Positions 30,121 through 30,199 of a stretch of DNA of 64,000 nt are shown piece by piece. This DNA comes from Escherichia phage SHEFM2K. How positions within the stretch are numbered: position 1 is the first letter of the stretch; every line of letters begins with the position of its first letter. The notes below the pieces were generated by a model that was not told the DNA's origin, did not search any database, and worked only from the letters and a program-made list of their open reading frames with translations. The stretch lies in the sequence record PQ390715.1. The stretch is one strand, 5' to 3'. Made by a program: the position numbers and the translations under genes.

Positions 30121-30150
30121 CGTTTGTATTCCCTTACGTTTATTAAGTTA

Positions 30151-30177
30151 AAAAGAAAGCCTCCGTCATTGGAGGCT
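30151..30177 (-). terminator. hairpin plus U-tract in the DNA polymerase leader (terminator/attenuator or translational operator)
   Basis: 7-bp stem AGCCTCC / GGAGGCT, followed on the minus transcript by a U-rich run; lies 38-57 nt upstream of the polymerase ATG. Confidence 0.45.
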
Positions 30178-30199
30178 ATTTAATATATTTTAGTACTAA

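Follow-up and report, generated by a model that had tools for sequence, protein, structure and literature searches.

The DNA polymerase gene of Escherichia phage SHEFM2K is preceded by a stable hairpin with a U-rich tail, which raises the question of whether this structure is a translational operator bound by the polymerase itself, as known for gp43 of T4, or rather the terminator of the gene located upstream. Both readings had been put forward by the first-pass annotation of the locus, the former as its main proposal and the latter as a fallback. They are weighed here in a 64,000-nt stretch of the phage genome (record PQ390715.1), referred to below as the window, and in the corresponding leaders of related phages. 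The window belongs to a PBECO4/121Q-like jumbo phage of the genus Asteriusvirus, the region being 99.5-99.8% identical to Escherichia phages of this genus, among them PBECO4, 121Q, G17, and SP27.

The position initially given for the hairpin and its U-tract, 38-57 nt upstream of the polymerase start, is exact in its coordinates and distances, as judged from both sequence and fold (Table 1). Folding of a 37-nt segment gives precisely this structure, with a free energy of -12.7 kcal/mol and a z-score of -3.99, only one out of 200 shuffled sequences doing as well, and the window holds a single copy of the pattern GCCTCC-N3-8-GGAGGC, versus 0.00 expected. A terminator scan also reports the hairpin, assigning it to the minus strand and giving it 7 pairs, of which 5 are G-C, a 6-nt loop, and the tail TTCTTTTTAA; the run of U residues is broken by one C. 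All the genes surrounding the hairpin are on the minus strand. On its 5' side, 22 nt separate it from the stop codon of a co-directional 100-aa gene, and on its 3' side it ends 37 nt before the polymerase ATG, i.e., it occupies positions -57 to -38 relative to this codon. The stem is separated from the polymerase Shine-Dalgarno sequence by 22 nt, U-tract included, with AACTTAATAAACGT lying between TTCTTTTT and the Shine-Dalgarno sequence, and the block TTTTAACTTAATA of this leader is invariant across Asteriusvirus. When a wider polymerase leader of 111 nt is considered, its structure is unremarkable (z = -1.44), and the signal is therefore that of a single hairpin.

Table 1. Features of the polymerase leader and related elements of the window (positions on the minus strand that are joined by two dots and given in descending order are read 5' to 3')
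Feature	Position	Strand	Basis
Family-B (T4 gp43-like) DNA polymerase gene, 1001 aa	27115..30120, ATG 30120..30118	-	ORF; Pfam DNA_pol_B_exo1 and DNA_pol_B
Shine-Dalgarno sequence of the polymerase, AAGGGA	30135..30130	-	Sequence
Rest of the polymerase leader, AACTTAATAAACGTAAGGGAATACAAACG, 29 nt including the Shine-Dalgarno sequence	30149..30121	-	Sequence
T-tract TTCTTTTT (U-tract in the RNA), directly 3' of the stem	30157..30150	-	Sequence, terminator scan
3' arm, GGAGGCT	30164..30158	-	Sequence
Loop, AATGAC	30170..30165	-	Sequence
5' arm, AGCCTCC	30177..30171	-	Sequence
Putative terminator stem-loop	30177..30158	-	7-bp stem AGCCTCC/GGAGGCT, 5 G-C pairs, 6-nt loop AATGAC
Small gene, 100 aa	30502..30200, TAA 30202..30200	-	ORF and translation; CDS in relatives' records
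Second terminator-like hairpin, 12-bp stem GTCATCTCACC..GGTGAGGTGAC followed by A-T7, -17.8 kcal/mol	30528..30563	-	Census, fold
Predicted promoter before the small gene, TGAGACA-N13-TGATACAAT	30595..30567	-	Composite motif, conservation
Copies of TGAGACA-N13-TGnTAyAAT	1313-1341, 7702-7730, 30567-30595, 44825-44853	-	Motif search
Intercistronic terminator-like hairpins	14914-14934, 16554-16573, 21464-21491, 30528-30563, 34567-34586	-	Census
Intercistronic terminator-like hairpin	56524-56547	+	Census

The gene downstream of the hairpin had been recognized as encoding a T4 gp43-like polymerase, and this identification holds, with about 27% identity to gp43 over the N-terminal 300 aa; the analogy to the T4 operator was therefore a reasonable lead. 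At its other end, the polymerase gene overlaps by 7 nt, at its stop, a 55-aa ORF (positions 26954-27121, minus strand) that matches phrog_29025, a conserved family of unassigned function, with an E-value of 5e-37, and this ORF therefore probably represents a genuine small gene that shares its transcript with the polymerase.

The 100-aa ORF located upstream of the hairpin matches two PHROG families, phrog_12534 (2e-45) and phrog_639 (2e-7), the second of which is also matched by the T4-type DsbA protein RB5_240 at 2e-40. Its product is thus predicted to belong, distantly, to phrog_639, which includes the double-stranded-DNA-binding protein DsbA of T4, this shared family being its sole link to DsbA. 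A pairwise BLASTP comparison with DsbA of the T4 type does not reach significance (E = 0.064) and aligns nothing more than a DELG[IV]D motif, while searches of Pfam, NCBIfam, and PDB sequences returned zero matches for the 100-aa protein. With tblastn, matches to this protein are confined to the Rak2-like phages and to the Sinorhizobium phage Phosso. Its homologues are labelled "structural protein (ESI-MS/MS)" in PA5oct, "identified with LC-MS/MS" in fENko-Kae01, and "DNA binding protein" in Phosso. The small gene is bracketed by two predicted terminators and, in Rak2-like phages, it is always found just 5' of the polymerase gene.

To follow the hairpin among relatives, polymerase leaders were collected from Asteriusvirus (UE-S1, ph0011, A4, Turkey3, Turkey5, and EJP2), Eneladusvirus (Yen9-04 and BF), Mimasvirus (GAP32, CBB, and XbC2), and RaK2 (Alcyoneusvirus), as well as from Munch, Kae01, Hallingskeid, PA5oct, and one IMG/VR relative; IMG/VR otherwise contributed few additional variants of the hairpin. 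The order small ORF, 55-85-nt spacer, and polymerase is kept across all the collected leaders, and a hairpin with a T-rich tail is present in the spacer of every one of them. The first-pass annotation had made conservation among polymerase leaders a check of its proposal, and the hairpin is indeed kept: in 18 orthologous leaders, standard pairs are found in 125 out of 126 stem cells, a paired fraction of 0.992 that was reached in none of 2000 column shuffles (mean 0.83). Changes on both sides of the stem are seen at three of the seven positions, namely P1 (A-T/T-A), P5 (T-A/C-G), and P7 (C-G/A-T). These pairs were counted, with the column-shuffle control, on a stem registration set by hand and anchored on the invariant GCC...GGC, because both MAFFT and a covariance model mis-registered the stems of the Mimasvirus group. 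The MAFFT leader alignments were dropped, as they put the two arms of the Mimasvirus/Eneladusvirus stems out of register, and so was the covariance model, for which eight gap-free sequences had been used and which read those stems as deletions and drew in reverse-strand and non-orthologous terminators.

The T-rich tail is just as constant as the stem, with 6-8 T within the 12 nt that follow the conserved GGC in 16 out of 16 distinct Rak2-like leaders, and it is present in PA5oct as well; an A-rich run is found 5' of the stem in most of the compared leaders. The spacing between the hairpin and the ATG is fairly constant (34-44 nt), and the leader sequence 3' of the hairpin is well conserved inside each genus, so that the hairpin may conceivably have an additional part in the expression of the polymerase. 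The loop, on the other hand, varies between 4 and 6 nt and exists in at least 12 variants: AAUGAC in the window and, in relatives, AGUGAC, AUGGAC, AUGU, AUGAA, UUUUCU, UAGUAU, AUGA, AUGGA, UUAAUU, UAGUUU, GGAU, ACGAA, or UAGAUU. In PA5oct, whose polymerase is 38% identical to that of the window, the equivalent position is occupied by a hairpin of unrelated sequence, AAGCCGTGC-TTTT-GCGCGGCTT, followed by TTTATTTTG. Taken together, the pairing of the stem, its compensatory changes, and the equivalent element of PA5oct indicate that the hairpin is functional, and what is under selection is its structure, not its sequence. The anatomy and position of the hairpin, the selection on its stem and T-tract, and the free variation of its loop are all direct observations. 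Since the conserved part consists of the stem and T-tract rather than the loop, conservation by itself has no power to discriminate between an operator and a terminator; a conserved stem and T-rich tail with a drifting loop is nonetheless the signature of an intrinsic terminator.

The same data dispose of the idea that the hairpin is a functionless palindrome that arose by chance in an A+T-rich spacer. This idea could draw on the 111-nt leader, which as a whole is not significantly structured, but it is at odds with the z-score of the hairpin alone and with the rarity of its sequence pattern in the window. Above all, it is refuted by the conservation data, i.e., by the compensatory changes across genera and by the re-creation of the hairpin with another sequence in PA5oct, and its probability is accordingly negligible.

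More distant phages indicate which of the two genes the hairpin accompanies. In Phosso, a strong hairpin AAATTATAGCGGGA-GTCAAA-TCCCGCTATAATTT is found directly 3' of the small-gene homologue, despite the presence of an extra ORF before the polymerase. Conversely, the hairpin is absent from Xoo-sp13 and RAS14, where the polymerase begins 8-22 nt past the preceding ORF, and it is also absent before the polymerase of Atu_ph07, whose upstream neighbour is divergent. Its retention in Phosso and its absence from these three phages argue that the hairpin belongs to the small gene, as its 3' signal, rather than to the polymerase gene. In the Vibrio phage 2.275.O, the spacer is 165 nt long and carries a different hairpin that lacks a T-tract.

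How, then, does the hairpin compare with the operator of T4? In T4, RB69, and RB49, the polymerase binds the leader of its own mRNA and represses its own translation, and the hypothesis that the same is true here is not without arguments. The window polymerase is gp43-like, and the hairpin is conserved and located in what is probably the polymerase mRNA, at a position close to the "about 40 bases upstream" reported for T4 (PMC3014915); that it lies in this mRNA is deduced from the lack of a promoter further downstream (see below). The window leader even resembles the T4 operator weakly in sequence (AGCCU..AAU.AC..GGCU, then AUAAAC.UAAGG.AAUA), with a z-score of 3.8 against shuffles, and none of the six other terminator-to-gene leaders compared in the window aligns to this operator with as high a score. 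However, this resemblance shrinks in relatives, to z = 1.6 in A4, a phage of the same genus, and to 0.8-2.1 in RaK2, Munch, Yen9-04, and CBB. We attribute it to coincidence, both leaders being A+T-rich and provided with a GC hairpin and a Shine-Dalgarno sequence.

More decisive are the features that define the operator. [quoted passage not shown] In the T4-type spacer between regA and gene 43, taken here from phage RB5, a hairpin GGGGC-TTCG-GCCCC is followed by a TATAAT element, by the operator AGCCU-AAUAACUC-GGGCU, and by AUAAACUAAGGAAUAUCU-AUG; the operator itself has a 5-bp stem, an 8-nt loop, and no U-tract, is located 18 nt before the AUG, and is followed at once by AUAAACUAAGGAA. The SHEFM2K hairpin shares with the T4, RB69, and RB49 operators its location 5' of a gp43-type polymerase start, at a similar distance, but it differs from that of T4 by its 7-bp stem, by a loop of 4-6 nt that is variable where the -UAAC- loop is conserved, and by its conserved U-tract. 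In addition, whereas the T4-type operator abuts the Shine-Dalgarno sequence, 22 nt with the U-tract come in between here. With a loop that is free to vary and such a gap, two defining features of the operator fail. Its association with the upstream gene, the similar hairpins that precede at least five other genes of the window, and the fact that some T4-related polymerases are devoid of autoregulation (PMC3014915) weigh in the same direction. The autoregulatory operator proposed at first is thus not supported, and we regard it as very unlikely.

A better counterpart in T4-type phages, as far as position is concerned, is the other hairpin of the regA-gene 43 spacer, GGGGC-TTCG-GCCCC, which is also G+C-rich, is found directly after the small gene preceding the polymerase, and is followed by TTAATT. 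This tail is nonetheless less T-rich than in SHEFM2K, a TATAAT-like element and the operator come in between this hairpin and gene 43, and the upstream gene is regA rather than a DsbA-family gene.

In contrast to its limited likeness to the T4 operator, the hairpin displays all the sequence and structural features expected of an intrinsic terminator. Its stem (7 bp, 5 of them G-C) and loop (6 nt) fall within the usual ranges of about 5-14 bp, for a G+C-rich stem, and 3-8 nt, respectively; a U-rich tract lies directly 3' of the stem; the structure is on the sense strand soon after the end of a gene (22 nt here; in Phosso, too, the hairpin stays at the 3' end of this gene); and its stem shows compensatory changes while the loop and the primary sequence drift. 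The fallback proposal of a terminator for the upstream gene is thus supported by the conservation of the stem and T-tract, by the position of the hairpin, and by public annotations. In the record of G17, whose sequence is identical, the hairpin is annotated as a "putative transcriptional terminator" (-12.50, ARNOLD), together with a second terminator 5' of the small ORF, and a terminator is annotated at the orthologous site in the record of Munch. The orthologous hairpin of CBB is also listed, as Torf262 (187,863-187,892, TGCCCCAGGATTGGGGCGTTTTGTTTTAAG, -11.6), in Table S8 of the CBB study (PMC5259590). As a putative terminator, the polymerase-leader hairpin is therefore already listed in the G17 and Munch records and in the CBB paper (PMC5259590).

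A search of Rfam gave sub-threshold matches only; the match to the phenylalanine-leader attenuator, Phe_leader (RF01859), has 30.6 bits versus a gathering score of 55 and stems almost entirely from the hairpin and its tail. The hairpin AGCCUCC..GGAGGCUUUCUUUUU nearly equals the consensus terminator stem of this family, AAaGCCuCC..GGaGGCuUUUUU, and the likeness extends to properties of intrinsic terminators in general, i.e., a G+C-rich stem (here 7 bp), a short loop, an immediate U-tract, and a location just past a stop codon. However, the parts corresponding to the leader peptide and antiterminator align poorly. An identity as a Phe leader was rejected, the terminator stem being the only part to align well and the other helices including non-standard pairs.

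Hairpins of this kind are common in the window. A census recorded 24 terminator-like hairpins, 18 of which fall in the 11% of the sequence that is intergenic, and a terminator scan of positions 24000-38000 found 16 sites versus 6.6 expected. About 14 of the census hairpins are located 4-43 nt past a stop codon on the same strand, with free energies from -8.3 to -17.8, and the polymerase-leader hairpin (-12.2 in this census) is mid-range. At least five hairpins other than that of the polymerase leader lie 9-76 nt 5' of the next co-directional gene (Table 1). With so many co-directional genes preceded by hairpins, the leader hairpin is not special to the polymerase, and it seems that this tightly packed genome makes general use of terminators, presumably leaky ones, between cistrons. 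Most such intercistronic hairpins are too near the next gene for a promoter to fit in between. The census also includes two hairpins, at 24505-24536 and 45425-45446, that are flanked by A- and T-runs, lie between convergent genes, and have a terminator score on both strands; these are apparently bidirectional terminators.

The abundance of hairpins placed 9-37 nt before co-directional genes can be understood in another way, as the phage may use them mainly for the differential stability of its mRNAs. The leader hairpin would then shield the processed small-gene mRNA from exonucleases at its 3' end, or else indicate where processing takes place, with little release of RNA polymerase, and a conserved stem with a free loop would suit a protective hairpin just as well as a terminator. 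A purely protective hairpin, however, needs no U-tract, whereas no relative has lost the T-rich tail, not even PA5oct with its unrelated stem; stem and tail moreover match the terminator stem of the Phe_leader attenuator consensus. A role confined to RNA stability or processing is thus unlikely, it being understood that the protective and terminator roles are compatible and not exclusive.

Whether RNA polymerase has to pass the hairpin in order to transcribe the polymerase gene depends on the location of promoters. The composite, promoter-like and phage-specific motif TGAGACA-N13-TGnTAyAAT occurs four times in the window, versus 0.10 times expected, each time in an intergenic region and on the minus strand, which is the coding strand (Table 1), and one of these copies is located before the small gene. 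The same promoter class, in the form TGAAACG-N13-TGnTATAAT, was predicted in CBB, where Porf_262 (TGAAACG..TGATATAAT) lies 5' of the small ORF; the next promoter listed is Porf_265, with none before the polymerase gene CBB_263 (PMC5259590). The TGAGACA motif of the window can thus be taken as the putative Asteriusvirus version of the TGAAACG..TATAAT promoters predicted for CBB and GAP32. Before the small ORF, a promoter and an A/T-rich upstream tract are kept in every Rak2-like genus, PA5oct having TTGACT-17-TATAAT. TGAGACA with a TATAAT is also seen at 26628-26657, and in the copy at 1313-1341 an AGGAG Shine-Dalgarno sequence begins 2 nt past the -10 element, which would be awkward for a normal transcription start. 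The copy at 44853..44825 points into an ORF-poor stretch, 43897-44944; this stretch and 60109-62039, of 1-2 kb each, are devoid of ORFs of at least 70 aa in the gene call. ARAGORN found no tRNA genes in the whole window.

Between the hairpin and the polymerase ATG, a scan of the 37 nt found no promoter-like site, and no conserved copy of the T4-late-type TATAAATA or of the CBB-type ATAAATA was seen by eye in the leader. A sigma-70-like TTGACA-16-TAATAT at 30279..30252 was discarded: it is inside the small gene, its counterpart in Munch lacks the TAATAT hexamer, and the count of sigma-70-like sites in general is not above that of shuffled sequences (54 vs 57.5). As there is neither room nor a conserved promoter 3' of the hairpin, the latter is very probably inside the polymerase mRNA. 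By the same token, in the absence of a promoter, or of room for one, between the hairpin and the ATG, the polymerase is most likely expressed by read-through.

The second terminator-like hairpin, on the other side of the small gene, begins 3 nt 3' of the -10 element of the predicted promoter and is conserved in relatives, in all Rak2-like genera; the annotations of G17, UE-S1, Munch, and CBB give it as a terminator, which in CBB is Torf261, directly after Porf_262. As transcription beginning about 7 nt past the -10 element would leave the G+C-rich base of the stem out of the RNA, this hairpin might halt transcription coming from the upstream tail-fibre genes while sparing that from its own promoter.

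From these data, we propose, with a probability of roughly 0.78, that the polymerase-leader hairpin is a Rho-independent terminator acting as a leaky intercistronic element, or attenuator, between the small gene and the polymerase gene. RNA polymerase coming in from the conserved promoter of the small gene, or from the more distant tail-fibre genes in the case of any late transcription, would copy the G+C-rich stem followed by the U-tract. Folding of the nascent hairpin would release a fraction of the transcripts, and the DNA polymerase, as the second gene of a transcript starting around position 30560, would be translated from those that read through. As a result, the small-gene mRNA would be more abundant than the polymerase mRNA, and the short transcript would keep the hairpin at its 3' end. 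What we infer in this model is that transcription terminates at this site at all, that it does so only in part, and that expression of the polymerase requires read-through. Literature searches did not find transcript maps of Asteriusvirus or Rak2-like phages.

Partial terminators located inside operons and lowering expression of the distal gene are known in E. coli, as exemplified by the rplL-rpoB attenuator and the rpsU-dnaG terminator. The SHEFM2K locus resembles these two cases in that a terminator would separate co-directional genes, the distal one being without a promoter of its own, and in that the distal product, a polymerase, would be required at a lower level than the proximal product. 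It differs from them in that partial termination is deduced here from the positions of promoter and terminator alone. One may further imagine that, from Asteriusvirus to PA5oct, the hairpin serves as a regulated attenuator in an operon of the DsbA-like gene and the polymerase gene, read-through or translation being tuned by the polymerase or by the small DNA-binding protein. We hold this to be highly improbable; if true, it would amount to gp43-type autoregulation of a polymerase through transcription termination rather than through ribosome binding.

Beyond the correct annotation of the hairpin, the significance of these observations is small. Still, the arrangement of promoter, small DsbA-family gene, terminator, and polymerase gene is kept down to 38% polymerase identity. 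Such conservation suggests that read-through of the terminator sets the dosage of the polymerase, a point that may be useful for work on Rak2-like jumbo phages.
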